A stretch of DNA of 64,000 nt from a virus (lineage: Duplodnaviria > Caudoviricetes). Shown here piece by piece: positions 31,052 to 55,487 of this stretch. The stretch's first letter is position 1, and each line of letters starts with the position of its first letter. A model generated the notes under the pieces. That model searched no databases, had not been told where the DNA came from, and saw only the letters and a list, made by a program, of their open reading frames with translations. Where the stretch lies: positions 128,001 through 192,000 of IMG/VR virus record IMGVR_UViG_2595698293_000001. One strand, given 5' to 3'. The translations under genes were made by a program, and so were the position numbers.

Positions 31052-31642
31052 ATGTATCACAATGAAACAATAGAGCTATTTGAAATAATCAACTCATTTG
31101 AGCCGGAGATGTTAAAAACATTACCCAGTTATGATGTACAACACAACGGACGTTCTTTCAGTTATATTTCAACATATGCAGAATCAGAACATCCAATAAA
31201 ATACAACGAATTTACGGTTAAATGGGTAACAGAAAGGGAAGATGAAGTTGTACCAACTATTTCAGTTGGTTCTTCAACTTTAACATCATTGACTCGTACT
31301 TACAATAATGTCAGTACTGATTTATTGAATACTTGTACAGTACTTGTATCAAGTGATTTATCCAGATTGATTTCAGTACAATGGGAAATGGGCTTGAATA
31401 GCAATATGATTTACCCACAGGCTATGATTAGTTCTACAATTATTAAAAAAACAACATCTGAAATGAAATTGATGAATGCGTTGTATTTGCGAAATGAAAG
31501 TGTATTAATTAATGGTGTACTTTATGATTTAAATGCAAATGCAAATGCATTCACTGAAGATATTAGTGATGATAAATCACATTTTTCTATACTAAACGTC
31601 ATTAATTTAAGGAACATTTTTAATGAATTACGATTGGCTTGA
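31052..31642 (+). CDS. Hypothetical protein
   Basis: ORF after terminator; AGGTG SD. Confidence 0.6.
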   Translation: MYHNETIELFEIINSFEPEMLKTLPSYDVQHNGRSFSYISTYAESEHPIKYNEFTVKWVTEREDEVVPTISVGSSTLTSLTRTYNNVSTDLLNTCTVLVSSDLSRLISVQWEMGLNSNMIYPQAMISSTIIKKTTSEMKLMNALYLRNESVLINGVLYDLNANANAFTEDISDDKSHFSILNVINLRNIFNELRLA

Positions 31643-32186
31643 AACCCTTATTAACGAATCATGTAATGCACTAAAAGAATATGATATTTCAGTGTTTTTC
31701 AATCCACTATTCAATGATCACAAATTTGAATCATTTGATATAGAAAAAAGAGATAATTTTATTATCTTAAAAAATGGTATTAGTCAGAAAGAAGTCGTGA
31801 CATATAAAAAGAATTCAAGTCCTTATAATATTAGTACTGCGATAGTTGGTAGTTCTGCGATAAATGGTAATATCAATGTTTATAACAAAAATCCATTTCA
31901 TGATGATTTACCTGATTATCACAGTATTGAGTATGTAAATTACACTTATTCATTTGTTTTCAGACAAGATGGTTTCATTGGGTTTGATGTAAAGAAAAAA
32001 TCAGAAACTTTATTGAATATTATTGTTGGAAATAGTGATATTTTGATATACAATGAAAATGGTTATAACTGGTACAACAAAGAAACATTTGAAGAATTTT
32101 CATTTCAAAATTCATTAATTGAACCAAGAAAAAATTTTGATTTATTTTATATTAATTCTGTACTTAAAAATTTTAAATTAGTTTAA
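31623..32186 (+). CDS. Hypothetical protein, FFQxS-motif family member
   Basis: EEFSFQNSLIE near the C-terminus. Confidence 0.65.
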   Translation: MNYDWLETLINESCNALKEYDISVFFNPLFNDHKFESFDIEKRDNFIILKNGISQKEVVTYKKNSSPYNISTAIVGSSAINGNINVYNKNPFHDDLPDYHSIEYVNYTYSFVFRQDGFIGFDVKKKSETLLNIIVGNSDILIYNENGYNWYNKETFEEFSFQNSLIEPRKNFDLFYINSVLKNFKLV

Positions 32187-32196
32187 GGATAATAAA

Positions 32197-32559
32197 ATGT
32201 GGTATATTATTAGTGTAGTAGTACTTTCTGTTTTGGTTGGTATTGTATTACTGAAAGGTGTAACGTATACAATGTCTAAAATAGACAAGTACCAGGAAAA
32301 TTCAGTAATCGATTTGTTTATTGATTACCCAAAAAGCATCATTGCTTTTCTGTTTGTTATGGTACTGATTGGTTTTTATATGGTATCTCATCAAATTGGA
32401 GAAATGTACACTTGTGCCATCCGAAGTAGTTCACAGAATGTAGAAACCGAATATAGTTGGTATTTTGATAAATGTCGCTTCAAAAATAAAGATGGTGCAT
32501 GGGTAGATATTGATCGTTTATTGGGTATGCCTGATGGCAAAGAACATGAACAACAATGA
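32197..32559 (+). CDS. Hypothetical membrane protein
   Basis: Two TM segments. Confidence 0.65.
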   Translation: MWYIISVVVLSVLVGIVLLKGVTYTMSKIDKYQENSVIDLFIDYPKSIIAFLFVMVLIGFYMVSHQIGEMYTCAIRSSSQNVETEYSWYFDKCRFKNKDGAWVDIDRLLGMPDGKEHEQQ

Positions 32560-33070
32560 ACATAAATTCTTCATAGAGCCAGAAGATGAAATAGACTATT
32601 TTGATGCAATAGACAGTACTGAAGATGGATATACACATATCAATATATATAGTAAAGGTAAAACTAAATTAGGACGCGATTTATCTAATTTTAGTCCCTA
32701 TAGTTTTACGCTTGAACCATATGGATGGTTTCCATCAGTAGAGTCATTTTATTTCTGGTTTTTAACTGGACAAAAACACCATGAGCTACGTAAGCTCTCT
32801 GGGGCGGCAGCTAAGGCTGCCGCGGAAAAGTATACCCATGATAGGCTTGAGATGACCGATGAGCGTCTTGTTGTGATACAGGCCGCTATTTGTGCCAAGA
32901 TAGCACAGAACCCCGACTTAGCAGAGCGTTTAAAGAAAAGTACATTAGCTTTTAAGCATTATTATTGCTATGGTACTAAAGTAATAAACGTGGAAGATGA
33001 ACATGGGTGGTTTGTTCAAACAATCGAAGATATAAGGACTGTATTAAAAGAAGGAGATGAACATGAATAA
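32546..33070 (+). CDS. NADAR/YbiA-like protein
   Basis: INIYSKG...LSNF...FPSVESFY...KIAQNP.L; start codon uncertain. Confidence 0.55.
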   Translation: MNNNEHKFFIEPEDEIDYFDAIDSTEDGYTHINIYSKGKTKLGRDLSNFSPYSFTLEPYGWFPSVESFYFWFLTGQKHHELRKLSGAAAKAAAEKYTHDRLEMTDERLVVIQAAICAKIAQNPDLAERLKKSTLAFKHYYCYGTKVINVEDEHGWFVQTIEDIRTVLKEGDEHE

Positions 33071-33296
33071 TACACAGTTTGAATCATTTGATATAGAGAG
33101 TATATTAAAACCAACTGATAACTGTACTGTACTTATGAATATGTACTGGATAGTCAAAGATGAAAAAGTCTTTAGATCATTACGAACTAAAGTATGGCAA
33201 TGCAATAAATTTGAGAGTGTAGTTAAACATGTAATCGAATCTTATCCTGGTTGTGAGGTTCGTTTTCTTGAATATGCTTATGTAAAGAAGGATTGA
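33063..33296 (+). CDS. Hypothetical protein
   Basis: AGGAG SD. Confidence 0.6.
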   Translation: MNNTQFESFDIESILKPTDNCTVLMNMYWIVKDEKVFRSLRTKVWQCNKFESVVKHVIESYPGCEVRFLEYAYVKKD

Positions 33297-33739
33297 TTAT
33301 GAAATATTATATGGTAACGGAAGGTGATTCGAGTGGTATTCATTTTTTATGGTCTTATTATGAATTGCTTGACTGTTGCACAGTAGAAGATGCAGAAGAT
33401 TTATACAGAGAAGAAAATGGATATTCACTGGATGCACCTTATGGATTGAGAATTTATAGTAAAGAAATTACAGAAAAAGAATATCATGATGGATTGCATT
33501 TTAACGATTATTATGGTGTTAGAACGCTAATTACCGAATTGATGTTTAAAAATAACATTTTCCCACTAAAAAGTTGGGCTTTAATGTTTGCAAATCCAAA
33601 AAAACCTGTTAGAATAGGGTTTCCTGGTTCACATCTAGTCTATCGTATGAATGATAAACGAGAGCTTAGCTACCAGTATGATTATGATTCACATAAGTTT
33701 GGTCTTCTACCAGCATTTAAAGGTTTGACAAATGAGTAA
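33293..33739 (+). CDS. Hypothetical protein
   Basis: Packed ORF. Confidence 0.6.
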   Translation: MIMKYYMVTEGDSSGIHFLWSYYELLDCCTVEDAEDLYREENGYSLDAPYGLRIYSKEITEKEYHDGLHFNDYYGVRTLITELMFKNNIFPLKSWALMFANPKKPVRIGFPGSHLVYRMNDKRELSYQYDYDSHKFGLLPAFKGLTNE

Positions 33740-34067
33740 AGATTCATTAGAATTTATTTTACGTTGTGATTGTGGTGAAAAATCAGATCATGTAATTCAC
33801 ATTGCACAGTACGATCTAGACGAAGAGTACGGTGATAATAAACTTGGCACTTGTTTAATCAGTGCTCGTTTAGAACCATGTAAAACATGGTATGAACGTG
33901 TTTGGATTGGTATCAAATACATCTTTGGTTACAATAGTTATCAGTATATGGATACAATGGTTGATGTTGATATCCTACGTGAAGTAGTACAACAGTTAAA
34001 AGATGAACGTTCAGAAGAAGACAAAAAAGCTTCTCGTGAAAAACGCTCAGAGGTTAAGGTTCTATGA
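33732..34067 (+). CDS. Hypothetical protein
   Basis: CDC..H motif; W.ERVWIGIKYIFGY. Confidence 0.65.
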   Translation: MSKDSLEFILRCDCGEKSDHVIHIAQYDLDEEYGDNKLGTCLISARLEPCKTWYERVWIGIKYIFGYNSYQYMDTMVDVDILREVVQQLKDERSEEDKKASREKRSEVKVL

Positions 34068-34258
34068 GTGTGTTATTTGAAAAGAAATATTGTACTAAAT
34101 GCTTGACAGCTTATACAATTCAGGGTATGATTTGTTGCTCAAACTGTCAAAGCACAGATGCTCAAACGTTTTTGGTTGATGATCGTTACACCGATTTAAT
34201 TCAATTCAAAGCGAATCGAAATTTAAAACATTTTAGTGCTTTACACGACAAAGATTGA
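34064..34258 (+). CDS. Small zinc-ribbon protein
   Basis: CTKC...CSNC. Confidence 0.55.
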   Translation: MSVLFEKKYCTKCLTAYTIQGMICCSNCQSTDAQTFLVDDRYTDLIQFKANRNLKHFSALHDKD

Positions 34259-34303
34259 ATGCTATAATCATCTTAACTTAAACAAAAACAGGAATTACTT
34301 TAT

Positions 34304-34795
34304 ATGACTAACGTTAATACCAATCTAGTAACTGATATCAAAAAAGTTGTTACTTCACATCATTTCTTTGCACCAGAAAAACAACGAGTCATCTCTGATA
34401 TCAAAGAAGATGAACTGAGTATTATTATTCGTTTTAAAGAACCCGGTGATGAAATTTCATCACAGTTCACTGTACTTCGTGGTAAATTCCGCGAAGAAGG
34501 CGTTGACAAGATCCCAGCTTACATTCTTTTTATTACACTTGGTAGTGTAATTAAGCTGGAAATTGATGAAAATCTGGAGCGTTCATATAAATTCATGCTT
34601 GCACCAGTTACAGATGATGATAACATTGAACTGGATTTCAAGAATGATTTCACTGAAGAAGAATTCTTTCAGCAAAGTACAATCCATGATTTCCGTTCAG
34701 TAACTTATGAGCATGTCGAACTTATCAAAGATATGATTGAACCAGTTACCAGTTACGAGAAATATCTCGATGGTCAAGCTGAAGGCAACGAATAA
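34304..34795 (+). CDS. Hypothetical protein, FFQxS-motif family member
   Basis: TEEEFFQQSTIHDF; own promoter upstream and terminator at 34802-34826. Confidence 0.75.
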   Translation: MTNVNTNLVTDIKKVVTSHHFFAPEKQRVISDIKEDELSIIIRFKEPGDEISSQFTVLRGKFREEGVDKIPAYILFITLGSVIKLEIDENLERSYKFMLAPVTDDDNIELDFKNDFTEEEFFQQSTIHDFRSVTYEHVELIKDMIEPVTSYEKYLDGQAEGNE

Positions 34796-34845
34796 AAATA
34801 AATAACCCACTTCGGTGGGTTATTTTCTATATAAGGATATAAATT

Positions 34846-35403
34846 ATGTTAAAAGAAATTCAAAAATTAACAAATTCAATTGTAGATTTTCTTAAAGATA
34901 AAAATGGTTTTAGTACTGAAGTATCAAAACAAGGTGTTCAGCTAATCGTTAAAAATCCTAATGGTACTGAAACTTTGTATGATGTTTATGAATTGCTTTT
35001 ATATAAACTTAGTGCTAATAAACTAGGCGGTGATATTCAGTTAAACATTAATGATAGTACTGAGGGTAAGATTTTTGCAATTAACACGAATGTAAATTTT
35101 GATATTCATTCCAAAATCCTCGAAATTAATAATTCATTTGATGATTACAAACACGACACTATTCGTGGTGTTTTTGTTAGTACTCAATTGTCTGAAAGTA
35201 CAAATCCATTTTCGGTACTAACCATGTATAAAAATGGTACATGGGTTCGTTACGATTTAACACTGTCGGAATTACTGTACGCTTGTGTAAATGGGTATAA
35301 ATTACAATTGAACGATTCAGGTTTTGTATACAATGAATTACGTGAATTGTGTGAAAATGTAAAAAAAGAAATGAAGCAAGAAGAAAATACAATATCCAAA
35401 TAA
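34846..35403 (+). CDS. Hypothetical protein
   Basis: AAGGA SD plus ORF. Confidence 0.65.
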   Translation: MLKEIQKLTNSIVDFLKDKNGFSTEVSKQGVQLIVKNPNGTETLYDVYELLLYKLSANKLGGDIQLNINDSTEGKIFAINTNVNFDIHSKILEINNSFDDYKHDTIRGVFVSTQLSESTNPFSVLTMYKNGTWVRYDLTLSELLYACVNGYKLQLNDSGFVYNELRELCENVKKEMKQEENTISK

Positions 35404-35419
35404 TGAGGTAGATCTCTGT

Positions 35420-35842
35420 ATGACATTACATGAAGTACTGAATAGTTTCTTTGAATTGAATATTTCAGAAATGAAAACCAAACAAAATAGACACCAACAT
35501 AGTGTTTGGTATGATGCCCAACCACAACCGTTTTTAATCAATTTTAAAGAAACAGAAACATACACAATAATGAGATTTCATCATTTTGATGGTGAAAATA
35601 ATTACAGGGTATCATATGATGCAGGAACTGATCGACTGATTTACACAGTAATGGGTACAATTTCATCAACCATTACGATTGGAAACTTCTCTTCTTATAA
35701 ATCAGAAGATAATTTTTTTCAGGATTCACTGATTAATGATTACAATGATTTATCATTCGAAGATATTGACAAAATGATGAATATGTTCTATAATGTAAAA
35801 AATACAAGTTTATCCCTATTTGGTGAAGATGATGAAATTTGA
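35420..35842 (+). CDS. Hypothetical protein, FFQxS-motif family member
   Basis: SEDNFFQDSLINDY. Confidence 0.7.
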   Translation: MTLHEVLNSFFELNISEMKTKQNRHQHSVWYDAQPQPFLINFKETETYTIMRFHHFDGENNYRVSYDAGTDRLIYTVMGTISSTITIGNFSSYKSEDNFFQDSLINDYNDLSFEDIDKMMNMFYNVKNTSLSLFGEDDEI

Positions 35843-36269
35843 TTTAGAAAAATTTCTGGATTTGGATTTAGATTCATTTTATATCAGAAAGTTTATTTTT
35901 AAACCACACACAAATGTGGTTGATTATGCTGTGATTGAACTACATGAATCAGACTATACAATTTGGTACGATGTTGATGATTGTATTCAACTAAAGGAAT
36001 GTGATGAATGTAAAGGTTATGTTCTGTTGTATGACCTCAATACAAATGAAATTACATTAAAAACTTCACATTATGATGAATACGGTATTATAACAAGACG
36101 TGAATGTGTTGCATTTTCACATGATGATTACACAGAAGAATCATTTTTTATGATTAGTACCTTACATGATGTTGGGGAATTTACATTTGAAACTTTCGAT
36201 AAATTTAATAAAATTTTGAAAAAGATTAAATCAATGATAAAGGAAATTGAAAATGAACAGTCCAAGTAA
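35829..36269 (+). CDS. Hypothetical protein, FFQxS-motif family member
   Basis: TEESFFMISTLHDV. Confidence 0.7.
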   Translation: MMKFDLEKFLDLDLDSFYIRKFIFKPHTNVVDYAVIELHESDYTIWYDVDDCIQLKECDECKGYVLLYDLNTNEITLKTSHYDEYGIITRRECVAFSHDDYTEESFFMISTLHDVGEFTFETFDKFNKILKKIKSMIKEIENEQSK

Positions 36270-36666
36270 ATGTTATATTGTTATTCGTAATGATTTGGAT
36301 ATGCCAGAAGGTAAATTTGGTGCACAAATCGGTCATGGCATCGACGCGGTATGGAAAGAGGTTTTGGTAGCCGGTACAATGGTGCGTGCTGCAAATATAG
36401 CCAATGAACAACCAAAAGAGCGTGATATCAAAATACAGGATGAAATTTCTAAATGGGTGAGTGATGGTAGTAGAAAGATTATTCTAAAAACAAAATCAGA
36501 AGACGAATTACTGAAAATTTATAAAAAGGTATTGTCTGAAGGTTGTATTTGTACTAAAATTTATGATTACGGATTTAATTTTTTTGATGGTTTAACTTTA
36601 ACTGGTATTGTTGTACATCCATGTTCAGAAGAAATTAAAACATTAAAACGAGTACGCTTATGGTAA
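36253..36666 (+). CDS. Peptidyl-tRNA hydrolase type 2 (Pth2)-like protein
   Basis: YIVIRNDLDMPEGKFGAQIGHG, W...G.RKIILK, I.DYG, T.TG....P. Confidence 0.8.
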   Translation: MNSPSKCYIVIRNDLDMPEGKFGAQIGHGIDAVWKEVLVAGTMVRAANIANEQPKERDIKIQDEISKWVSDGSRKIILKTKSEDELLKIYKKVLSEGCICTKIYDYGFNFFDGLTLTGIVVHPCSEEIKTLKRVRLW

Positions 36667-37034
36667 ATGAACATTTAAAAGAATTATGTTCTTTATGGAA
36701 ATCATCTGATGTAAGATTTGAACCTGTACCCAAAAATAAAGATAACTGGCATAATTCTATTGTTATGGGGTCTTGTGGTTTTTTTCTTTTACCTATGGTA
36801 CTAAAAGATAAAAAAATAGGTATTGTTGTTTTATACAATGATCTTATATATTATTTTTTGTACGAAGATGAAATTCAGTACGTACATAATAATATGACAC
36901 ATACATATAAAAGAGATACCACACATGAAGAACTATTCCAACTAAGTACTTTATACGATGGAGTAATTCAGTACGAAAACTTAATAGAAGTTTTTAACTT
37001 ATATGATTCCGTAATGGAGGTAATTGAAAGATGA
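36660..37034 (+). CDS. Hypothetical protein, FFQxS-motif family member
   Basis: THEELFQLSTLYDG. Confidence 0.7.
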   Translation: MVNEHLKELCSLWKSSDVRFEPVPKNKDNWHNSIVMGSCGFFLLPMVLKDKKIGIVVLYNDLIYYFLYEDEIQYVHNNMTHTYKRDTTHEELFQLSTLYDGVIQYENLIEVFNLYDSVMEVIER

Positions 37035-37372
37035 TGAGTCATTGTAAATTCTGGCTTCCTGTTATGGTTGTTCTGTTTATTATTTTTACAGTAGTAAACT
37101 ATAAAATCCACAATTCTATTCCAAGACAGCCTACAGCAGAAGAATTAGCTATTCATCAAAATAGTGGTTTATATGCTGAAGTACTCAATAAAATCAAAAA
37201 CAAATGTACTGGTATCAGTGATAATGAAAGGAATACATTCTATACATGTCAGGACGGTTCTAAAGTATCAGTGATTTACTGGAAACGACAAGATAGAAGT
37301 GGGTATGTCACTCGTGATTTTGATAAAAATGGTAAATTAATTTCGATTTATGGACACCCAGATGATATCTAA
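37031..37372 (+). CDS. Hypothetical membrane-anchored protein
   Basis: N-terminal TM. Confidence 0.6.
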   Translation: MMSHCKFWLPVMVVLFIIFTVVNYKIHNSIPRQPTAEELAIHQNSGLYAEVLNKIKNKCTGISDNERNTFYTCQDGSKVSVIYWKRQDRSGYVTRDFDKNGKLISIYGHPDDI

Positions 37373-37814
37373 AGAACAACATAAATTTTTATTCAAAATA
37401 TTGAATTCTTATAAAGTTAATAAGTTCAGTACTAAACACGTTCACAATCCAAAAATTGTTATTAGCACAAGGCGATATATAGGAAATAACAATTTTGAAA
37501 TATACTTATATAAAGGAACTATTTCATTAGAAATTCAAAGATATGGTATTATTTTATTATTAATTGAGTATAATCCAATTTCTGACAATATGACGTTATT
37601 ATTCAATGATAATGAACATTGTTCTGAAATCGTTTATCGTATAAACGATGTGTCGGAAATTCTTGAAGAAGATGGTTATTTTCAACAAAGTCTTGTACAA
37701 AATCTTCCATTGGAATATAATGATTTTTGTAAAATGATGGATGATATCACAACCATCAAAAATTCAATGCTGGAACGTTTTGAGTTAACAGAGCAAGTGT
37801 GCGACAATGACTAA
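37350..37814 (+). CDS. Hypothetical protein, FFQxS-motif family member
   Basis: EEDGYFQQSLVQNL. Confidence 0.7.
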   Translation: MDTQMISKEQHKFLFKILNSYKVNKFSTKHVHNPKIVISTRRYIGNNNFEIYLYKGTISLEIQRYGIILLLIEYNPISDNMTLLFNDNEHCSEIVYRINDVSEILEEDGYFQQSLVQNLPLEYNDFCKMMDDITTIKNSMLERFELTEQVCDND

Positions 37815-38061
37815 AGTAGTTAGAAAGCGTAGAGTACTTGATAATGATGAATTCAAATCATTAGAGATTCATCGTCAATTGTTTCACCGTCTTTGTGCTG
37901 GCGAGAAACAAATTGTAGTTACTGAAACATATGAAGAACCAGAAAATATTTTCGGTAACTATTTCCCTGTATTCAATTTGTATATTAAACGCGGTCTATT
38001 GGAAGTAATTACAATAGATCAGTTACCGGAAGATGAACATGAATTTACTGTTATCAAATAA
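37807..38061 (+). CDS. Hypothetical protein (possible frameshifted tail to 38121)
   Basis: ORF; acidic continuation in the +1 frame. Confidence 0.55.
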   Translation: MTKVVRKRRVLDNDEFKSLEIHRQLFHRLCAGEKQIVVTETYEEPENIFGNYFPVFNLYIKRGLLEVITIDQLPEDEHEFTVIK

Positions 38062-38122
38062 AGAACCATTAGATCGTGATGATGATTTTTATGATGAACG
38101 TTATGGTGAATCGGAGGAATAA

Positions 38123-38677: not shown

Positions 38678-38707
38678 GATTTCTAAATAAAATAAAACAT
38701 AACAAGG

Positions 38708-39601: not shown

Positions 39602-39630
39602 TTAATAATTTAAAATGGAAAATAATATCA

Positions 39631-39840
39631 ATGATTAGTAAAGTATACCTTGATGAAAATATTTCTAACGAAAAGACACAATATGCAGTTTATGATTCCT
39701 TGACTGATAAAGTACTAACAGAGAGTATTCATTCTTATAAAGCAGATGTTGAAGATTTTATGACACACAAATATGGTGCTGACTGGCGTACAACACATGC
39801 ATTATATAGTATTCGTGAAATTAAAATCGTAGTGTTATAA
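39631..39840 (+). CDS. Hypothetical protein
   Basis: ORF followed by terminator at 39846-39871. Confidence 0.6.
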   Translation: MISKVYLDENISNEKTQYAVYDSLTDKVLTESIHSYKADVEDFMTHKYGADWRTTHALYSIREIKIVVL

Positions 39841-39893
39841 ACATAAAAAATCCACCACATGTGGATTTTTTTCTATTTGAGATTAAATTAAAC

Positions 39894-40331
39894 ATGCACA
39901 ATGAAGAAATAATTCATTTTCTTAAATTTTATTTAAAATGTATCAATGCTGTTCAAAAATTAATGGAATGTGAAATGATTAATGATTTTAATGATCATTT
40001 TGGATATATAAGTACAGATTTATATCCCGTCCCTGTTCGTGCAAAATGGAATTATGATCAAGATGCATATGCAATGCAACTGGATTTTGATTTATTCGGA
40101 CTACCATCTAAATTTAATATAGAAACTATTTGTTTTGATAAAAATGATGGTTTGATTTTAATTTGTTATAACAATAAAACAGAAGTTGATTTAAAATACA
40201 GAGAATGGTTAACCGAAGAATCGTATTTTCAGTCCTCATTAATTTATGATTTGGGTAGTACTGATTTACAGTACTGGAAAAAATGCATTGATTTATTTGA
40301 AAAGATTGAAGGAGTAATGACAGGTGTTTAA
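39894..40331 (+). CDS. Hypothetical protein, FFQxS-motif family member
   Basis: WLTEESYFQSSLIYDLGSTDLQYWKKCI; close paralog of the ORF at 49747. Confidence 0.7.
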   Translation: MHNEEIIHFLKFYLKCINAVQKLMECEMINDFNDHFGYISTDLYPVPVRAKWNYDQDAYAMQLDFDLFGLPSKFNIETICFDKNDGLILICYNNKTEVDLKYREWLTEESYFQSSLIYDLGSTDLQYWKKCIDLFEKIEGVMTGV

Positions 40332-40719
40332 AATAAAACTAATTTATACCACCGGCGATACATTCGAAACACGTGAAGTAGAAAGATTTATTAATTGCGA
40401 ATGGGATACAGAAGAGAAAGCTATTCATGAAATGAATAAAATCCGAGAGCACTGGATTTTTAATAAAAAAATTAGTTCTACTCGTGATAAAGGCACAAAG
40501 AAGAGATTGGTATCACAAGCTATTATGCAATCATGGTATAAACCTGGTAATTCTGAATATACTATGCTGCTAGTTGATAATGATGGAAATTCTTTTGAGA
40601 TGTATGCTGCATGGTTAGGGTATTTTGAAATTCTTCATAGTACTGAAGTAGTCAATACAAACCAATTAGACAACTATATTGATTTCGATGAATTAAGATC
40701 AAACATGGGATTGTGGTAA
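40324..40719 (+). CDS. Hypothetical protein
   Basis: GGAG SD, GTG start; Y.TGD.F...W.GYFE.L pattern. Confidence 0.65.
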   Translation: MFKIKLIYTTGDTFETREVERFINCEWDTEEKAIHEMNKIREHWIFNKKISSTRDKGTKKRLVSQAIMQSWYKPGNSEYTMLLVDNDGNSFEMYAAWLGYFEILHSTEVVNTNQLDNYIDFDELRSNMGLW

Positions 40720-41153
40720 TGAATGGTCCAACTGTACTAAAAATCCTTCGTAAATTTAAACACCCAATATTGGTCGGTCGCTGGAAATCATTAAAAGAAA
40801 ATAAAAATACCGACGATCAAAAAAATATCAATTATAGATGGTATTGGGATTATTCTAAAGATTATGGTGATTCACTTTGTGTAAAAATTAAATTCAATAA
40901 TTATAATAAATGGTCTAGAGATAAAAAATATGTATATTCATATGATATTCACTTATCAAAGGAACATGTATTTATTTTTCATAGAAGTTACAACAAATTT
41001 TCAACTAAACATTATGTACTATTTTCTATAAATGAATTATATGAAGATTTAGAAAGTGTATTATTTCAGCAATCATTATTGACTTCTACTGGTATGGTGA
41101 GTACTCAAGAAATTGAAGTACTTAAAGAATTAAAAGATATATATTTTACATAA
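40719..41153 (+). CDS. Hypothetical protein, FFQxS-motif family member
   Basis: LESVLFQQSLLTS. Confidence 0.65.
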   Translation: MNGPTVLKILRKFKHPILVGRWKSLKENKNTDDQKNINYRWYWDYSKDYGDSLCVKIKFNNYNKWSRDKKYVYSYDIHLSKEHVFIFHRSYNKFSTKHYVLFSINELYEDLESVLFQQSLLTSTGMVSTQEIEVLKELKDIYFT

Positions 41154-46547: not shown

Positions 46548-46592
46548 TATTAAGGAGACTGCTAATAGTCTCCTTTATTTTTGGATAGATTT

Positions 46593-47479
<887 letters not shown>

Positions 47480-48486: not shown

Positions 48487-48574
48487 GGCCGTATGTCCAA
48501 ATTGGTAAAGGAGACAGACTTAAAATCTGTTGGTGATATTCACCTTCTCGATTCGAGTTCGAGTGCGGCTACCA
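48487..48574 (+). tRNA. tRNA-Leu(TAA)
   Basis: Cloverleaf; ACAGA-CTTAAAA-TCTGT; long variable arm; ACCA. Confidence 0.93.
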
Positions 48575-48603
48575 AATCTATAGTACTTCATTAGGTAAAC
48601 AAT

Positions 48604-48927
48604 ATGTGTACTGAAGCAAGAAGATATGTTTATATTTTGGTTCGCAAAGATTTAGAACTAAAGGATATTATTGTTCAAACTGCTCATGCTTCATATGAAA
48701 GTGCAAAAGAATTCAAAAATAATGCTGATAGAACATCTATTATAGTTTTAGAAGTCAAAGACTTATACAAACTAAATGATGCTAAAAGTTATTTAAATTC
48801 TAATGGTATTAATTGGACTGTGTATACTGAAAAATCTTTAGGATTTGGAGAAACTGCTATCAGTACTGAAGCACTCAATAACGAACAACGAAAAATTATG
48901 CGTAAGTTCCAATTATTGAAAGTATAA
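48604..48927 (+). CDS. Second Pth2-like protein, inside the tRNA cluster
   Basis: YVYILVRKDL...VQTAHAS...IIVLEV...ETAIST...L. Confidence 0.7.
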   Translation: MCTEARRYVYILVRKDLELKDIIVQTAHASYESAKEFKNNADRTSIIVLEVKDLYKLNDAKSYLNSNGINWTVYTEKSLGFGETAISTEALNNEQRKIMRKFQLLKV

Positions 48928-48940
48928 ATATAATAACAAA

Positions 48941-49016
<76 letters not shown>

Positions 49017-49021
49017 AATTC

Positions 49022-49117
49022 AACAGGTAGTAACGCTCTTAGGTGTACATTAATATAGGAATAAGGGTTAACAGTACTGTACACAAACGAGTAACCCCGA
49101 AAGACCCGAAACCTGTT
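49022..49117 (+). ncRNA. Candidate pseudoknotted small RNA
   Basis: AACAGGT/ACCTGTT, GTGTACA/TGTACAC, loop GGGTTA pairing with TAACCC. Confidence 0.5.
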
Positions 49118-49127
49118 AAAGTTTTAC

Positions 49128-49177
49128 GGATGATTATAAATCTGAATTGACAGAAACAGCTAAAACTGTTATTATCC
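49128..49177 (+). repeat. 50-nt tRNA-like structured repeat, copy 1
   Basis: GGATGAT-TATAAA-TCTG AATTGA CAGA-AACAG CTAAAA CTGTT-ATTATCC. Confidence 0.85.
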
Positions 49178-49185
49178 TATTTTAT

Positions 49186-49370
49186 TCCACAATCAGACGT
49201 ATATGGTGTAAGTTACGTCGATGAAATCCAGAACAAGATCTCTGGTACTCTAGGAAGTGGTGAATGTTAACCTAGACGGGCTTGTTAATTGGACGATAAG
49301 CAATTAATACTTGACTAGCAGGTTTAAATTAGAGGTGACTGTCCTTCACTATACTGGAAAACCGGATGGA
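49186..49370 (+). ncRNA. Candidate multi-hairpin ncRNA (about 185 nt)
   Basis: GACGTA/TACGTC, CCAGA/TCTGG, TCTAGG/CCTAGA, TTAATTG/CAATTAA, GTGA/TCAC. Confidence 0.45.
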
Positions 49371-49431
49371 TTTTTAATTAAAAAAGTGTTGAACAAAATG
49401 TTCAATAATGATATAATAATTATCAATGTAA

Positions 49432-49500
49432 GGCGTGGAACAATGTTTACAGAAGTTACTTAGTAGCCTGTACGCCCCACGTCAAGGTAGCCGAAAGGCA
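49432..49500 (+). ncRNA. Candidate small structured RNA
   Basis: Promoter 49389-49417; GGCGTGG/CCACGTC, TACAG/CTGTA, GCC-GAAA-GGC. Confidence 0.4.
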
Positions 49501-49508
49501 AGTTTAAT

Positions 49509-49558
49509 GGGTGGTTATAAATCTGAATTGACAGAGACTATTAAAACAGTCACCATCC
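49509..49558 (+). repeat. 50-nt tRNA-like structured repeat, copy 2
   Basis: GGGTGGT-TATAAA-TCTG AATTGA CAGA-GACTA TTAAAA CAGTC-ACCATCC(A). Confidence 0.85.
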
Positions 49559-49746
49559 AAATTTTAATTTAATAGTTTAGTATGAATAAAAAACAAATAC
49601 ATAAACATTATGATGAAATTGCAGTGAAGGTTTTTCGTGGTGAATTAGGTTATAAACCATCTGTTAAATCTAAATATTCAAAATCTTCTTCAATAAAGTT
49701 CAATCATAAAATAGAGTTTAAATAATACTGGACAATAATATATAAA

Positions 49747-50196
49747 ATGAATATCACTAATGTAAAAGATTTTTTAGAATATTTTATTAAGAATACTCGT
49801 GCACGTGATGAATTAGAAAAGAATGGATTCATCCAAGGTTACGATTGCACTAATTTCTTTTATACTATTGATAAACATGAATATTATGTCGATGCAATTT
49901 TAATTGATGATGATGGGTATTGCGTTGGATTTTCATTCGAAGATATATCACAAGATGCACCAATAAACTTTTATGCATTATATTATAATAAAAAAGATAA
50001 TATTTTGAAATTAGGATTTACTCGTGAATCAGATGAAGATGTTGTATTCGATTGTAACACATGGTTGGAACATGATTCATTCTTTCAAAGTACATTAATT
50101 CATAACTTTATGACAACAGATTTAGAGTACTGGAAAAATTGCATAGAATTACTTAATGTAATTTATAATGAACAAATCAAACAAAAATGGCAATAA
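49747..50196 (+). CDS. Hypothetical protein, FFQxS-motif family member
   Basis: WLEHDSFFQSTLIHNFMTTDLEYWKNCI. Confidence 0.7.
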   Translation: MNITNVKDFLEYFIKNTRARDELEKNGFIQGYDCTNFFYTIDKHEYYVDAILIDDDGYCVGFSFEDISQDAPINFYALYYNKKDNILKLGFTRESDEDVVFDCNTWLEHDSFFQSTLIHNFMTTDLEYWKNCIELLNVIYNEQIKQKWQ

Positions 50197-50302
50197 TCAC
50201 AGGACGGTTCGGTATTTGGTAGTATGTTTGGCTGAATAAAGTATAAACGTTTAAAAAAAAGTGTTGAACAAAAAGTTCAGTACTATATAATTGACTTACT
50301 AC

Positions 50303-50376
50303 GTCCCCTTAGTTCAGTTGGATAGAACAACTGCCTTCTAAGCAGTAGGTCACTGGTTCGAGTCCAGTAGGGGATA
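50303..50376 (+). tRNA. tRNA-Arg(TCT)
   Basis: GTCCCCT/AGGGGAT; ACTGC-CTTCTAA-GCAGT; followed by TACCA, so CCA is displaced by 2 nt. Confidence 0.92.
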
Positions 50377-50524
50377 TACCATACAATATGGGAATAGTTA
50401 GAAGATATTCCCAATTTTAATTTAAAAAGTGTTGAACAAAAAGTTCAATAATGATATAATGGTATTATAAAAGGTTGTAATACTTAATATTAACTTTTAA
50501 GAAGATAATTAGTTATCATACACA

Positions 50525-50616
<92 letters not shown>

Positions 50617-50633
50617 TAAAATTCAATTAAAAA

Positions 50634-50767
<134 letters not shown>

Positions 50768-50775
50768 GATTTTAT

Positions 50776-50825
50776 GGATAGTTATAAAGTTGAATTAACA
50801 GCGACACTTAAAATTGTCACTATCC
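50776..50825 (+). repeat. 50-nt tRNA-like structured repeat, copy 3
   Basis: GGATAGT-TATAAA-GTTG AATTAA CAGC-GACAC TTAAAA TTGTC-ACTATCC(A). Confidence 0.85.
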
Positions 50826-50884
50826 AAATTTTAATTTAAATAGTACTTGACAAAAATGTTCAGTACTGATACATAAAGAATATT

Positions 50885-50962
50885 GGCCCTTTACTCTCAA
50901 GTGGTTAGAGAATCCGACTCATAATCGGTAGGCTCTGAGTTCGAATCTCAGAAGGGCCACCA
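50885..50962 (+). tRNA. tRNA with CAT anticodon, probably Ile2 (lysidine)
   Basis: GGCCCTT/AAGGGCC-ACCA and CGACTCATAATCG resemble enterobacterial tRNA-Ile2. Confidence 0.85.
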
Positions 50963-50981
50963 AATTTTAAAACATAATCTA

Positions 50982-51689
50982 ATGAAAATACAATTACAAT
51001 ATCCATATAATCAAGATTGGGATACAGGTTCATTAACAATTAATCCCGAAGGTCGAAGAACTGTTATTTTATATAACAAAACTACAAAAATCACAAGTAG
51101 TACTGCTTATGCACGATATTTGTTAGCAGTGCACAATAACAGATATTTAACTGAAAATGAAGAAGCTGACCATATTGATGAAGATTTCACTAATGATGAT
51201 ATATCTAATCTTCAAATTTTGACAATAGAAGAACATAGAGCTAAATCAATTGCGAATGGTATTCAAGCTAAATATGATGAATTTGTGTGTAAAGGTTGTG
51301 GAATAAAATTTTTAAGAAGACATAATCAAGTTAAGTCATATACAAAATATTGTAGTAAAAAATGTTCTTGGAAAAATAATCCTCCACCAACAAAAACAAA
51401 AAATGGTGACACGACAATCGATTATGATAAAGTAAAAGAATATATAAACGATGGATTGTCAGATACTGAAATTGCAAAGAAAATGAATATAAATCGCAAT
51501 TCAGTACTAAATTATAGAACTAAACACAATATACCTTCTAAAAAATTTGCTAATGTTAATATTTTAGAAGATAATATTGATGAAATAAAACAACGTTTGC
51601 TTTCTGGTGAAAAGAAAGTTGATATATACAAAAGCTATGGTTCTTCAAAAAATGTTTTTGCAAGATTTTTAAAGAGACATGGATTATAA
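50982..51689 (+). mobile_element. Free-standing HNH homing endonuclease with zinc finger and HTH tail
   Basis: ADHIDEDFTNDDISNLQIL...EH; CKGC...CSKKC; two HTH-like C-terminal repeats; lies between tRNAs. Confidence 0.8.
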
Positions 51690-51698
51690 TAGAATAAT

Positions 51699-51771
51699 GA
51701 CTCTGTAGCACAATCGGTGGTGCGATTGACTGTTAATCAATTGGTTGGGGATTCGAGTTCCTCCAGAGTCG
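51699..51771 (+). tRNA. tRNA-Asn(GTT)
   Basis: GACTCTG/CAGAGTC-G; ATTGA-CTGTTAA-TCAAT; no encoded CCA. Confidence 0.9.
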
Positions 51772-51789
51772 CTTAACAAACCAAAGAAT

Positions 51790-51937
51790 TGTACCTAAAT
51801 AACGAGTATATGGATTCTCTATGATTGTCCCTGTATGAGTTAGAGAGATTATTCATAAGAAGTCGAGTGTATAGATTCTCAAAGAAATGATTGTTTATAC
51901 ATGAGTTATCTTAAAACGAATATCTCAAGGTACACCA
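51790..51937 (+). ncRNA. tRNA-like ncRNA with 3' CCA (about 148 nt)
   Basis: TGTACCT/AGGTACA-CCA; adjacent TGAG/CTCA stem; internal hairpins. Confidence 0.55.
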
Positions 51938-51944
51938 AACAATT

Positions 51945-51993
51945 GACTCTGTAGTTCAGTTGGTAGATCTTATATAGTTACCAACCAGAGTCG
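51945..51993 (+). ncRNA. Mini tRNA-Asn derivative without anticodon or T arm
   Basis: Same GACTCTG/CAGAGTC-G-CTTA ends as tRNA-Asn; GTTGGTA/TACCAAC stem. Confidence 0.65.
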
Positions 51994-52001
51994 CTTACAA
52001 T

Positions 52002-52066
52002 GGAAGGTGGTAATACGTCAGTATTACCTTTTAAGACCGAAGATATGAGTATCTTCCCTTCCACCA
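52002..52066 (+). ncRNA. tRNA-like 65-nt RNA with ACCA
   Basis: GGAAGG/CCTTCC-ACCA; GGTAATAC/GTATTACC and GAAGATA/TATCTTC hairpins. Confidence 0.7.
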
Positions 52067-52070
52067 CACA

Positions 52071-52144
52071 TTGTACTCTTCTCCCGTAAGGAGAATGACA
52101 AAAAACTATCCGAAAGATAGAAAGCCTGAAATAACAGGGTGCAA
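52071..52144 (+). ncRNA. Candidate multi-branch small RNA
   Basis: TTGTACTC/GGGTGCAA; TCTCC/GGAGA, CTATC/GATAG and CTG/CAG hairpins. Confidence 0.5.
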
Positions 52145-52156
52145 TTAAATTACAAT

Positions 52157-52352
<196 letters not shown>

Positions 52353-52377
52353 ATTAATTTAAATGGAGTACTGAATA

Positions 52378-52578
52378 ATGTCCAAATATGTTAATCGTCA
52401 AAAACGAAAAGCACGTACTAAGGACGAAATTCTACAGTTGATTCAAAAAAATCAAAAAGATGTAGTTATTGAAGAATATATTTTTCAGTACGGTAATCAA
52501 CAATCAATGGTACAAGAAAGTAATGGTAAGTATCATTCTGAACATTACGACCTTATTAAAAGAATTCTTTTGAAATAA
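52378..52578 (+). CDS. Hypothetical protein
   Basis: GGAG SD. Confidence 0.6.
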   Translation: MSKYVNRQKRKARTKDEILQLIQKNQKDVVIEEYIFQYGNQQSMVQESNGKYHSEHYDLIKRILLK

Positions 52579-52584
52579 ACAATA

Positions 52585-52710
52585 ATACTCATCATCTAAT
52601 ATCAGTACTGATGCGTATCAGCAGGTGGCTTGATGGGCAGTACTGACAGGATACATCGTTCTCCGGTGGCGGGTTCGGTGGATATACGTAAAGTCGTATT
52701 GGGTATACCA
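52585..52710 (+). ncRNA. tRNA-like 126-nt RNA with 7+5 bp acceptor/T stack and ACCA
   Basis: ATACTCA/TGGGTAT-ACCA; ATACG-TAAAGT-CGTAT; TCAGTACTG/CAGTACTGA inner stem. Confidence 0.6.
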
Positions 52711-52733
52711 AATATAATAATAAAAATATGTAA

Positions 52734-52809
52734 TAATGTGATAGCTCAAATAGGTAGAGCGGGAGGCCAAAGTGCTGACTGGTTTGTGAGTTCGATTCTC
52801 ACCCATTAT
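52734..52809 (+). pseudogene. Degenerate tRNA, isotype undetermined
   Basis: D arm GCTC-AAATAGGTA-GAGC and T arm GTGAG-TTCGATT-CTCAC intact; acceptor bulged; anticodon arm remodelled. Confidence 0.65.
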
Positions 52810-52874
52810 TAATAAAATTGTAAGCTACCCTGTTATTTGGGTAGCTTTTTCTTTTTATATAACAAGAGATTATT

Positions 52875-53291
52875 ATGAGTAAATTAACTTTACTGAATAT
52901 TTTACAAGAATGCTATGAAAAACTTGAAAATTCCAATCCAAGTGTCATATTCAACTCATCATTTGATAATTATTCTACTTCAAATTATAAAGCAAAAATT
53001 TTAGTATATAATCACTTTGATTTATCATCATTAAGTGATTGTAGTAACATTTACTTACACATTTGTGACTACAATGATGATAGTGGGTATACTATGACGA
53101 TTGATATTTACAAAGGATATTTTTATTATAAAAATAAAAAATTTGACAATTTTGAAAATTTATTCCCATTGACTGAAGATACAATGTTTCAGTACTCAAC
53201 ACTTTATGACACATCCTCCTTGACAATGGATGAGTTAAATTTTATAATGTCTATTAGTTTGGATATTCCAATTTATGAAGCAGCATTATAA
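52875..53291 (+). CDS. Hypothetical protein, FFQxS-motif family member
   Basis: TEDTMFQYSTLYDT. Confidence 0.7.
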   Translation: MSKLTLLNILQECYEKLENSNPSVIFNSSFDNYSTSNYKAKILVYNHFDLSSLSDCSNIYLHICDYNDDSGYTMTIDIYKGYFYYKNKKFDNFENLFPLTEDTMFQYSTLYDTSSLTMDELNFIMSISLDIPIYEAAL

Positions 53292-53308
53292 AATCTAGGA
53301 GCATTTTT

Positions 53309-53461
53309 ATGAAAATTAAGTGTTGTGTATGTGATTGTGAAATTGATGAAAAGCATGTATATGGCGAATGGGATGATTACTGCTCTGATTGCTGGGAATC
53401 TGAAGGACGTGATACAGAACGTTGGGAAGATGAGAGCGAGTGGGATGAGGATGAAGAATGA
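53309..53461 (+). CDS. Small acidic zinc-finger protein (50 aa, not in the ORF track)
   Basis: AGGAG SD; MKIKCCVCDCEIDEKHVYGEWDDYCSDCWESEGRDTERWEDESEWDEDEE. Confidence 0.65.
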   Translation: MKIKCCVCDCEIDEKHVYGEWDDYCSDCWESEGRDTERWEDESEWDEDEE

Positions 53462-53607
53462 AAGACCAAAATTGGTTGGGTTGACCATCAAAAAGTATCA
53501 CTATGTGGTTCAAAGAAAGTCGCAGTAATGATACGGTGGGATATAAGAAGCGTATGTTAGAAGAGTTATCATCAACGTCAAGAAACTAATATTATCACGG
53601 AGAAAGT

Positions 53608-53928
<321 letters not shown>

Positions 53929-53942
53929 TGAATAGATTTATA

Positions 53943-54040
53943 GGACATACTGCGGGATCTGTTTTTAAGGCTTAGGTACTTCAGTACTAAAACAATACCT
54001 TAGAAACGGAGTCCAAGTTGAATTCTTGGAATGTCCACCA
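53943..54040 (+). ncRNA. tRNA-like 98-nt RNA with T arm and ACCA, no D or anticodon arm
   Basis: GGACAT/ATGTCC-ACCA; TCCAAG-TTGAATT-CTTGGA; long TCTGTTTTTAAGG/CCTTAGAAACGGA helix. Confidence 0.7.
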
Positions 54041-54044
54041 AATT

Positions 54045-54118
54045 ACCGCCTTAGAACAATTGGTAGTGTAACTTGATTTGTAATCAGTAGGTTATATGTT
54101 CGAGTCAGATAGGTGGCA
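54045..54118 (+). pseudogene. Degenerate tRNA-Thr(TGT)
   Basis: TGA-TTTGTAA-TCA anticodon arm and TTCGAGT T loop; mismatches in acceptor, D and T stems; no CCA. Confidence 0.7.
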
Positions 54119-54284
54119 CAAATAATAATAGTACTAGTAAGGTTTATTTACAGTTATGGATTCTTCTTTATATTCTAGTACTATTTCGTTTTTTAATAAA
54201 CAATTCAAAACTTTATTTTTTTTAATTTACTTAGGCTGATTCATTGAATCGGCCATTTTCTTTGTTAACAAAAGAGATAAAAAT

Positions 54285-54692
54285 ATGAAAAAATTTCTTT
54301 CAAAAGAACACGAAGAAAATATTCTTAATGCATTGAGTGTATTTCCAGAGAGTGTTATAAGTAATAATAAGAATTCTACATATTACTATGGTAAAGGTAA
54401 TTGGTTTTATTTTAGCGACAGTTCATATATGTGTGTATTAAATCTATGTACTGAAGAATATTCTTATTGTTTAAGGATCGATCCTGGTCATAAATTAATC
54501 CTACTATGCGAAAAGAATGATGAATTTTATGAAAGTGATATAGATGATACTGATTCATATATTAGTGATTTTTATCTTGAAGAAGAAAATTATTTTATGG
54601 ATAGTACTGTGAATGAAATTACCATTCCTTTTAGTATAATGAAACGTTCATATGAATTTCTAAAATACAACAGAGAAAAATTTCATGACTGA
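54285..54692 (+). CDS. Hypothetical protein, FFQxS-motif family member
   Basis: LEEENYFMDSTVNEI. Confidence 0.7.
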   Translation: MKKFLSKEHEENILNALSVFPESVISNNKNSTYYYGKGNWFYFSDSSYMCVLNLCTEEYSYCLRIDPGHKLILLCEKNDEFYESDIDDTDSYISDFYLEEENYFMDSTVNEITIPFSIMKRSYEFLKYNREKFHD

Positions 54693-55071
54693 TATAAATG
54701 AAGTTATCGAGCATTTTTATAATTGGGTACTAACGGATCCAATAAAAACTGGATTAATTGAAAAATATAACTGCTCTATGTATTCTTATTGTTCAAATAA
54801 AGCTACGATGTATAGTAAGGATGTTGATAATTATTTACTAATCACTGACGATGTAGTTTATGATGTATTTGACAATGAAATTGTCATTGATGGCAGTGAT
54901 GTTGATGGCAGTGATGTTGATATTGTAAAATTACATGATATGGATTTCTCATGTACTGAATCATCGGCGTTTCAATTAAGCACATTATATGATTTCCGAT
55001 GCAGTACTGAAAGTATTGTATTATTATTGAAAATAGTACATATTTTAAGAAAAAAGAGAATGGTATTATAA
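54685..55071 (+). CDS. Hypothetical protein, FFQxS-motif family member
   Basis: TESSAFQLSTLYDF; 15-bp tandem duplication at 54887-54916 (DGSDV x2). Confidence 0.7.
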   Translation: MTDINEVIEHFYNWVLTDPIKTGLIEKYNCSMYSYCSNKATMYSKDVDNYLLITDDVVYDVFDNEIVIDGSDVDGSDVDIVKLHDMDFSCTESSAFQLSTLYDFRCSTESIVLLLKIVHILRKKRMVL

Positions 55072-55487
55072 TGGTGGAATTTAAGGTTCAAGATTTTTAT
55101 GATTTTGTAATGAAAGCCGAAAAGAATAATCGTGAATATATTAAAACAATTGGGGATAATACATATCGACACTACTGTTATTCTTTAACGGAGGGAATGT
55201 CTGCATTTACAAATTCAACTATGGATAATGTATTATATAATTTATTAATGCATAATTGTCATTATGTATTTGATGTTTACAGTAATCAAATAATTTATAA
55301 AATTATATTTTTTGATAAAAAACAAATTGAAAATACAATTAATTTGGATTGTTATGATTCTGAATCAAAAGAAGGATTTGCTTTTCAGTTATCAGTTTCA
55401 TATGATTTCCCATTTAGTACTGAAGATTATATTTTAATGTTAAAGATTGTTGATAAATTAAGACTAAACGAAAGGAATTTCAAATGA
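55071..55487 (+). CDS. Hypothetical protein, FFQxS-motif family member
   Basis: KEGFAFQLSVSYDF; paralog of the preceding gene. Confidence 0.7.
   Translation: MVEFKVQDFYDFVMKAEKNNREYIKTIGDNTYRHYCYSLTEGMSAFTNSTMDNVLYNLLMHNCHYVFDVYSNQIIYKIIFFDKKQIENTINLDCYDSESKEGFAFQLSVSYDFPFSTEDYILMLKIVDKLRLNERNFK

Follow-up and report, generated by a model that had tools for sequence, protein, structure and literature searches.

Why should fifteen small proteins, encoded in one stretch of a phage genome and otherwise hardly alignable, share a single short motif near their C-termini? The stretch in question (the window) comprises 64,000 nucleotides, positions 128001-192000 of the 345,809-bp genome IMGVR_UViG_2595698293_000001, and is AT-rich (27-36% G+C), with positive GC skew throughout and nearly all long open reading frames (ORFs) on the + strand. 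Between window positions 34000 and 42000 (8 kb) it is 99.4% identical to Klebsiella phage K64-1 (RaK2 type, Alcyoneusvirus) and 97-99% identical to five other Klebsiella jumbo-phage records. Wastewater sequencing runs contain near-identical phage DNA to the same 8 kb, one run spanning all of it, and a 5.7-kb wastewater contig has 34 differences from it. A previous interpretation made from the letters alone, here called the sequence-only reading, had noticed the motif E-E-x-F-F-Q-x-S-[TL]-[LI]-x-D in at least 15 ORFs and proposed an expanded family with a constant module and a variable domain, the members being perhaps adaptors or anti-defence effectors that would plug into one common partner. 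The family, referred to below as the FQ family, is confirmed to be real, is restricted to one clade, is larger than first stated, and is so far without description as a family. Coordinates are those of the window unless the genome is named.

All fifteen motif strings were located in + strand ORFs where the sequence-only reading had put them. The measured protein lengths (124-187 aa) and the distance of the invariant Phe from the C-terminus (27-58 residues) agree with the 120-190 aa and 25-60 aa that it had given. Four of its start positions (35829, 39894, 40719 and 46593) are inner start codons of longer ORFs that begin at 35820, 39861, 40713 and 46581, respectively; the K64-1 annotation adopts the inner starts for at least three of these four. 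A regular expression written from the reported motif matched 26 of the 1175 ORFs of at least 50 aa in the genome, all 26 on the + strand and 12 of them inside the window, against a mean of 0.01 and a maximum of 1 in 200 residue shuffles, which excludes chance as the source of the motif. A hidden Markov model (HMM) built from the C-terminal ~70 aa and iterated to convergence at a cut-off of E<1e-3 collected 46 ORFs of the genome, and the best shuffled decoy across the rounds scored E 0.0056-0.42. Thirteen of the fifteen ORFs were inside this set, the exceptions being ORFs 49747 and 31623. The former obtained E 0.11 in the first HMM round and E 1.1e-7 with a later 63-position model that was partly built from it; it is a full-length paralog of ORF 39861, since both match phrog_21500 (1e-67 and 7.5e-63).

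The 63-position model matched 48 ORFs of the genome, so that roughly every eleventh gene (9% of the ~523 non-overlapping + strand ORFs) belongs to the family; 47 of the 48 are sequences used to build the model, which match by construction. All copies are on the + strand: 15 at 159-183 kb of the genome (the window), 28 at 245-275 kb, and 5 scattered. The model yielded 15 matches within genome positions 128001-192000 and added none to those already noticed; the earlier count of "at least 15" was thus complete for the window and far below the genome-wide 46-48. Single-seed jackhmmer searches inside the genome alone recovered 1-33 members per seed. Two ORFs in the large array (genome 269112-269690 and 270848-271339) were each reached by jackhmmer from one seed, and may be degenerate members without a clear motif.

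Outside this genome, Escherichia phage 121Q has 62 matches to the same model, Cronobacter phage GAP32 has 13 and Serratia phage BF has 10; Pseudomonas phage PA5oct and T4 have none. With these copy numbers, the claim of an expanded family was borne out well beyond the window. Five jumbo records of IMG/VR (359-378 kb) had 13, 29, 8, 30 and 9 matches, and a degenerate DNA pattern run over IMG/VR met at least 115 stretches, with 23 HMM-accepted ORFs among the matches listed, on contigs of 354-378 kb wherever the contig was given. A profile search of 1.84 billion representative proteins returned 95 at E≤1e-3, of which 93 have an F-[QM] core and the majority read [ST]EExxFQxS[TL]. A homologous-protein search with the family alignment gave 5 matches, and one vB_KleM_RaK2 protein in BFVD is 100% identical to a member. 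On the basis of these match counts across phages, IMG/VR records and protein clusters, the family marks RaK2-type phages of Enterobacterales. It consists of many diverged paralogs, mostly in head-to-tail arrays, and is confined to one clade in which copy number varies between relatives.

Alignment of 204 non-redundant copies on the Phe delimits a conserved island of 13 residues, [ST]-E-E-x-Φ-F-Q-x-S-[TL]-[VLI]-[YH]-D. The column frequencies are T/S 72%, E 82%, E 76%, Q 96%, S 88%, T/L 97%, V/L/I 90%, Y/H 53% and D 53%; the columns of F, Q/M and the residue class at +4 anchored the alignment, and are thus partly circular. Information reaches 1.3-4.7 bits at positions -5 to -3, 0, +1 and +3 to +7, about 1.0 at -2, -1 and +2, and mostly 0.1-0.5 in the flanks. 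The N-termini of the members are without conservation.

Family members are 99-224 aa long genome-wide and, when compared with 243 other small ORFs, have a lower median isoelectric point (4.85 vs 5.90), a more negative net charge (-9 vs -3) and a higher aromatic content (14.8% vs 11.7%; p 2e-5 to 5e-7), the sequence-only reading having remarked on aromatic residues in the N-terminal part. A transmembrane-like segment was found in 1 of 48. The members are soluble, acidic and aromatic-rich proteins.

No described protein family was found to include them in Pfam-A, NCBIfam, PADLOC or the PHROGs with function, as had been supposed from the sequence. In Pfam, none of the 15 window members was over the cut-off, and 148 family sequences gave five one-off matches, each in a single member; 48 members gave two one-off matches in NCBIfam and four in PADLOC. 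PHROGs matched 13 of the 15 window members, all being PHROGs of unknown function. Sequence-profile searches of PDB returned chance rows only (A118 integrase, E 0.009; riboflavin kinase, E 0.12).

Structures were predicted by AlphaFold for two members of different subfamilies, ORF 39861 (48 aligned sequences; predicted local distance difference test, pLDDT, 59; predicted template modelling score, pTM, 0.31) and ORF 52875 (148 aligned sequences; pLDDT 57, pTM 0.51). A helix is predicted across the motif in both, spanning residues 101-110 in the second. The models have in common a predicted order of N-terminal helix, four to six beta-strands, 10-residue motif helix (-4 to +5), loop, and final amphipathic helix; the helix which the sequence-only reading had placed C-terminal to the motif is thus predicted twice, at low confidence. 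Of the shared fold that was to be looked for, the common order of secondary structures was obtained, and a confident known fold was not. If the motif helix is treated as ideal, E-4, E-3, F0, S+3, T/L+4 and D+7 would share one face and the less conserved hydrophobic positions -1, +2, +5 and +6 another, a pattern that would suit a plain core less well than an exposed surface through which members contact a shared partner or one another.

Fold searches of BFVD with both models found the family itself only, and the best results in PDB were a Foldseek E of 0.27 and VIA Z-scores of 4.8 and 4.7. The p32-like, frataxin-like and pilin-like resemblances at this level are probably no more than a common helix-on-sheet arrangement. 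The p32 group (p32, gC1qBP, Mam33 and kinetoplastid p22) likewise consists of acidic proteins, in which an N-terminal helix is followed by an antiparallel sheet and a pair of C-terminal helices, much as predicted here, and p22 and p32 chains top the Foldseek list for the second model; yet they do so at noise level (E 0.27, template modelling score 0.30, root-mean-square deviation 19 Å), p32/MAM33 gives a VIA-align Z of 3.3 with the first model, pilins, frataxin and others do equally well or better, and both models are at pLDDT 57-59. None of the 148 family sequences matched the p32/MAM33 Pfam model, and the PDB profile searches gave unrelated weak rows only. In the ESM Atlas, ORF 52875 had no usable match. 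A second member had a 0.89 feature match to a Fe_bilin_red cluster, which was rejected: PF05996 was nil in the genome even at E≤10, with positive controls.

Whether the parts N-terminal to the motif are distinct domains depends on the comparison made. Clustered alone, they yield small ortholog groups only, and in a profile-profile comparison of 13 such groups 1 of 78 pairs reached an hhalign probability of at least 90% (reversed control 0 of 78). With whole sequences, jackhmmer from 11 of the 15 window seeds recovered 160-183 of a 192-sequence pool, the seed ORF 52875 aligned with 66 of the 192 across at least 75% of the seed, and several PHROG cross-matches cover most of the member length. 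The proposal of a constant module joined to a variable domain therefore stands as to one C-proximal constant module and N-terminal parts that are unalignable between subfamilies. As to the variable domain, the simpler reading is that a single fold, so diverged as to be unrecognisable, may underlie all the N-terminal parts in place of distinct domains.

The arrays were compared over two distances. All 43 members in the stretches compared with K64-1 have orthologs there. In 121Q, 40 of the 78 ORFs of a 32-kb stretch are members, with 17 reciprocal best matches to the present genome, including the colinear pairs (121Q to this genome) 178519 to 264822, 180752 to 267428, 183048 to 268568, 184544 to 271327 and 187334 to 274108. 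Identity is 26-31% where most of the length aligns, the majority of pairs align around the motif only, and several 121Q copies have one common best match in this genome. Cross-genus DNA matches (77-82%) to the 8-kb query 34000-42000 fall in non-family genes only. The colinearity with 121Q, the low identity and the shared best matches indicate arrays of considerable age, in which divergence is fast over long periods and copies are gained and lost.

Gene arrays have been given one-line mentions for 121Q (Hua et al. 2017, PMC5646251) and phAPEC6 (Wagemans et al. 2020, PMC7247149), and "nearly 10% paralogues" for RaK2 (Simoliunas et al. 2013, PMC3622015). Wholly or partly, these are probably the same genes, given the 62 model matches of 121Q and the 40 in its 32-kb stretch. 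The passages concerned contain no motif, family definition, range or function. Hua et al. write of "very similar genes", whereas the copies found here are not very similar. What is meant could be a separate run at 158-161 kb of 121Q, which directly precedes the FQ-family array there; its dozen or so tandem ORFs (genes 330-341, ~70-80 aa) may form a second tandem family. In the literature on RaK2, 121Q, PBECO4, GAP32, Alcyoneusvirus/Asteriusvirus and jumbo-phage paralogs, no paper was found that defines the family or the motif.

Genome context suggests how the arrays might be transcribed. The + strand has 80 near-consensus sigma-70 sites (at least 11/12 matches) and the - strand 15, where shuffles give 15 ± 3.4. 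Of the 80, 58 lie in 150-285 kb of the genome, as do 43 of the 48 members; the equivalent short-ORF region of phage CBB was interpreted as early genes (PMC5259590). Perfect or near-perfect TTGACA-N16-18-TATAAT sites are concentrated at genome 225-245 kb: the 225-240-kb bin contains 16 of the 80 + strand sites and the 240-255-kb bin 7, and at 225-245 kb most of the promoter-like sites precede short ORFs. Because the big array follows this promoter-dense region, long co-directional transcripts are likely. Directly before genes 39894 and 46593, at 39845-39871 and 46552-46575, are hairpins that resemble terminators in both directions (stems of 10-11 bp, T runs on both strands), and terminator-like sites in the region number 16 against 5.0 ± 2.5 in shuffles. 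Two wastewater libraries recorded as RNA contained only scattered pieces of 150-258 nt (depth 2-11) that may have been carried over from DNA; they are uninformative on transcription. In K64-1, the annotated genes beneath both family arrays are all "hypothetical protein", and six other genes in the first stretch are annotated as structural.

The fifteen window members are all on the + strand. ORF 31623..32186 (187 aa; motif FEEFSFQNSLIEP at nt 32088-32126) scores E 0.006 (15.4 bits) with the 63-position model, outside the E<1e-3 set, and judged by its sequence is a borderline family member; its phrog_23860 has no cross-matches to the PHROGs of other members. ORF 34304..34795 (163 aa; TEEEFFQQSTIHD, nt 34652-34690; HMM E 2.7e-14) matches phrog_23322 together with nine cross-matches to other members' PHROGs, and a sigma-70-like site (11/12) ends 36 nt upstream of it. 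ORF 35420..35842 (140 aa; SEDNFFQDSLIND, nt 35702-35740; HMM E 4e-11) matches phrog_24941 and cross-matches phrog_17453 with residues 53-131. Near ORF 35820..36269 (149 aa; TEESFFMISTLHD, nt 36132-36170; HMM E 7e-11; phrog_24510), the K64-1 ortholog of which begins at ~35832, there is a 12/12 promoter-like site at 35766-35794.

The next member, ORF 36660..37034 (124 aa; THEELFQLSTLYD, nt 36921-36959; HMM E 2.6e-10), has no PHROG match, and ORF 37350..37814 (154 aa; EEDGYFQQSLVQN, nt 37665-37703; HMM E 1.1e-11) cross-matches phrog_30841 over residues 25-149, near full length. ORF 39861..40331 (156 aa, or 145 aa from ATG 39894; TEESYFQSSLIYD, nt 40212-40250; HMM E 5.9e-12) matches phrog_21500. 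Two divergent members follow: ORF 40713..41153 (146 aa; LESVLFQQSLLTS, nt 41049-41087; HMM E 3.5e-07), from which jackhmmer did not reach the rest of the family, and ORF 46581..46991 (136 aa; SDDEYFQLLTSED, nt 46857-46895; HMM E 1.4e-05), from which it found that sequence only. ORF 46988..47479 (163 aa; DEDEIFMQSTVQD, nt 47288-47326; HMM E 1.2e-10) matches phrog_22160. In ORF 49747..50196 (149 aa; EHDSFFQSTLIHN, nt 50068-50106), the paralog of ORF 39861 by way of phrog_21500, Ser and Thr of the motif are displaced by one residue.

ORF 52875..53291 (138 aa; TEDTMFQYSTLYD, nt 53172-53210; HMM E 2.2e-10) matches phrog_17453, the PHROG most often cross-matched by other members. The last three are the divergent member ORF 54285..54692 (135 aa; EEENYFMDSTVNE, nt 54579-54617; HMM E 9.4e-07; phrog_24027), ORF 54685..55071 (128 aa; TESSAFQLSTLYD, nt 54955-54993; HMM E 2.4e-12) and ORF 55071..55487 (138 aa; KEGFAFQLSVSYD, nt 55368-55406; HMM E 1.5e-11), the latter two having phrog_27994 in common.

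Amid the family members, eight tRNA genes (Leu-taa, Gly-tcc, Arg-tct, Ser-gct, Ser-tga, Met-cat, Asn-gtt, Thr-tgt) lie at 48487-54119, adjoined by ORF 50982-51689, which is annotated as HNH endonuclease in K64-1. The ORF at 28611-29291 has an ortholog labelled "peptidase" in K64-1; its product matched no peptidase family in Pfam, and its Pfam match is a Rv2179c-like 3'-5' exoribonuclease (E 4.5e-8, over the cut-off). A TelA-like (toxic anion resistance) protein is encoded at 27415-28542 (Pfam E 1.3e-31), and a stand-alone TelA in the RaK2-type phage group was remarked by Iyer et al. (2021, PMC7824862). Genes for a ClpS-like domain and for two or three ClpP-like proteins are also present in the phage (window 11094-11306; genome 300235-300777, 222276-222683 and 304642-304854), one ClpP-like gene standing ~0.7 kb upstream of the family member at genome 223418-224020.

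What, then, would such a family do? We tentatively prefer a diversified set of host-directed binders, outside the virion and probably made early, that would share one functional helix. The fifteen window ORFs are the local share of one clade-specific multigene family, common to the jumbo phages of Enterobacterales that are of RaK2 type. Its genes are probably transcribed early, in long co-directional units that start from promoters of host type. The repertoire would probably be of birth-and-death type, made up of host-directed binders for takeover or counter-defence, in which the diverged N-terminal sheet may give each copy its own target and the invariant helix may supply one common function. 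Several observations weigh against this interpretation. A near-consensus promoter stands within 150 nt upstream in only 4 of 48 members, and the promoter-like total in 31-48 kb is at shuffle level (109 vs 108.5). Identity to K64-1 differs slightly, with a median of 98.0% for members and 98.8% for 104 neighbours (p 0.048). Apart from the four one-off PADLOC matches among 48 members, no match to a defence or anti-defence model was found, and the non-virion status of the members is taken from annotation only. Both structure models are of low confidence, and the argument from the helix faces consequently depends on the assumed ideal geometry.

Against these host-directed binders stands a reading which we hold to be possible, if on balance doubtful, namely that all members have one very diverged fold in which the motif is a structural keystone, its helix N-cap and core contacts holding the helix on the sheet. 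There would be no shared interactor, and the paralogs would do unrelated or redundant jobs, or would be mostly neutral tandem-duplication filler of a larger capsid. [ST]-E-E is a typical helix start, and the conserved T/S-E-E of the motif also resembles a helix N-cap, which is what a purely structural role would look like. The same predicted order of secondary structures in two subfamilies, the PHROG cross-matches and jackhmmer alignments that span most of the length in many pairs, and the only slightly faster divergence of members than of neighbours between close relatives also speak for a keystone, and such arrays were taken as genome expansion by tandem duplication by Hua et al. (PMC5646251) and Wagemans et al. 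(PMC7247149). However, conservation is limited to 13 mostly polar residues (E, E, Q, S, T, D), the hydrophobic core candidates being less conserved, and neutral filler is argued against by the long retention of the family in several genera, with open frames and protein-level constraint. The bolder version of the shared helix, in which it would be a universal plug that docks ~50 N-terminal "heads" per genome on one hub, seems unlikely to us; the hub would be a machine of the host that is conserved across Enterobacterales, or else an enzyme of the phage, for instance its Clp-type protease system. ClpP-like and ClpS-like genes are also present in GAP32, 121Q, BF and PA5oct, and absent from T4; since PA5oct has them and is without the family, gene presence does not discriminate the Clp system as hub.

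The remaining explanations have much less to commend them. Internal proteins of T4 share an N-terminal capsid-targeting sequence which is cleaved, for packaging, and inner-body proteins of phiKZ form paralog families. The FQ family is like the former in combining diverse small proteins with one short constant peptide; its motif, however, is C-proximal and predicted helical, 27-58 residues from the C-terminus, the N-termini are unconserved, and there is no virion annotation. An N-terminal targeting peptide removed by a prohead protease, as in T4, was not found. That the members are inner-body or ejected proteins packaged in the capsid, with the motif as packaging signal, is accordingly a reading we consider improbable, even if they are small and acidic and if 121Q and phAPEC6, which carry the family, show in bubblegrams an inner body whose proteins are unassigned (PMC5646251, PMC7247149). 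In the two annotated stretches of K64-1, six neighbouring genes are labelled as virion proteins and none of the family is; the 54 virion proteins of RaK2 detected by mass spectrometry all map to clusters of ~82 kb and ~20 kb (PMC3622015); the motif is internal, with no N-terminal leader; and RCC1-like proteins are preferred for the inner body by the phAPEC6 authors (PMC7247149). Some copies read EEGYFQG or EEGYFQGS, which brings to mind cleavage by a protease, since sites of the tobacco etch virus (TEV)/3C type have a consensus similar to E-x-x-Y-x-Q with S or G after the Gln. A cleavage site of this kind was rejected and is given very little credence, for the residue after Gln is not small (Y 28%, L 24%, Q 16%, together 68%) and the site lies within the predicted helix. 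Moreover, PF00863 (Peptidase_C4) and PF00548 (Peptidase_C3) were nil in the genome, control genomes being equally silent, and the nearby "peptidase" of K64-1 matches an exoribonuclease family instead. Least probable by far is that the repeat is a DNA or RNA element or that the ORFs are spurious, for which nothing speaks beyond the recurrence of a short string. Synonymous sites vary freely, the conserved Ser uses both codon blocks (AGY 28, TCN 15) and Gln both codons (CAG 28, CAA 17), so that constraint acts on the protein and a DNA-level element is ruled out; every frame is open, K64-1 and 121Q have conserved orthologs that are annotated as genes, and 95 protein clusters occur in public data.

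Among known systems, the multigene families of large eukaryotic DNA viruses offer a parallel to host-directed binders with a shared helix. They include MGF360/505/110 of African swine fever virus and the poxvirus ankyrin proteins with a C-terminal F-box-like PRANC motif. Like the FQ family, these are sets of tens of diverged paralogs in arrays, with copy number differing between relatives, and the poxvirus ankyrin proteins join a variable N-terminal binding part to a short constant C-terminal docking motif for one host hub. No relation in sequence or fold is known, the host here is bacterial, and a hub for the FQ helix is hypothetical. If the helix were a universal plug, the family would be a modular, fast-evolving targeting repertoire, the bacterial-virus counterpart of the poxvirus ankyrin/F-box substrate receptors. 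In phages, Bacillus phage G has a ~35-copy zinc ribbon, a lineage-specific jumbo-phage expansion (Iyer et al. 2021, PMC7824862), in which likewise one small domain was multiplied tens of times in one lineage; the FQ family has another fold, no metal ligands, and more copies (46-62). It is not mentioned in that paper under the terms searched in the parts of its text covered.

RaK2/K64-1-type phages are studied as agents against Klebsiella pneumoniae, and most of their genes are without assigned function. In several genera of these phages, roughly one gene in ten belongs to a single unrecognised family, and its definition reduces some 50 "hypothetical proteins" per genome to one question that can be tackled. 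Should the helix be a common contact, its hub could be named and a large set of natural binders of host proteins would be opened up; if it is a keystone of the fold only, the family would be a clear example of jumbo-phage genome growth by birth and death of small genes.

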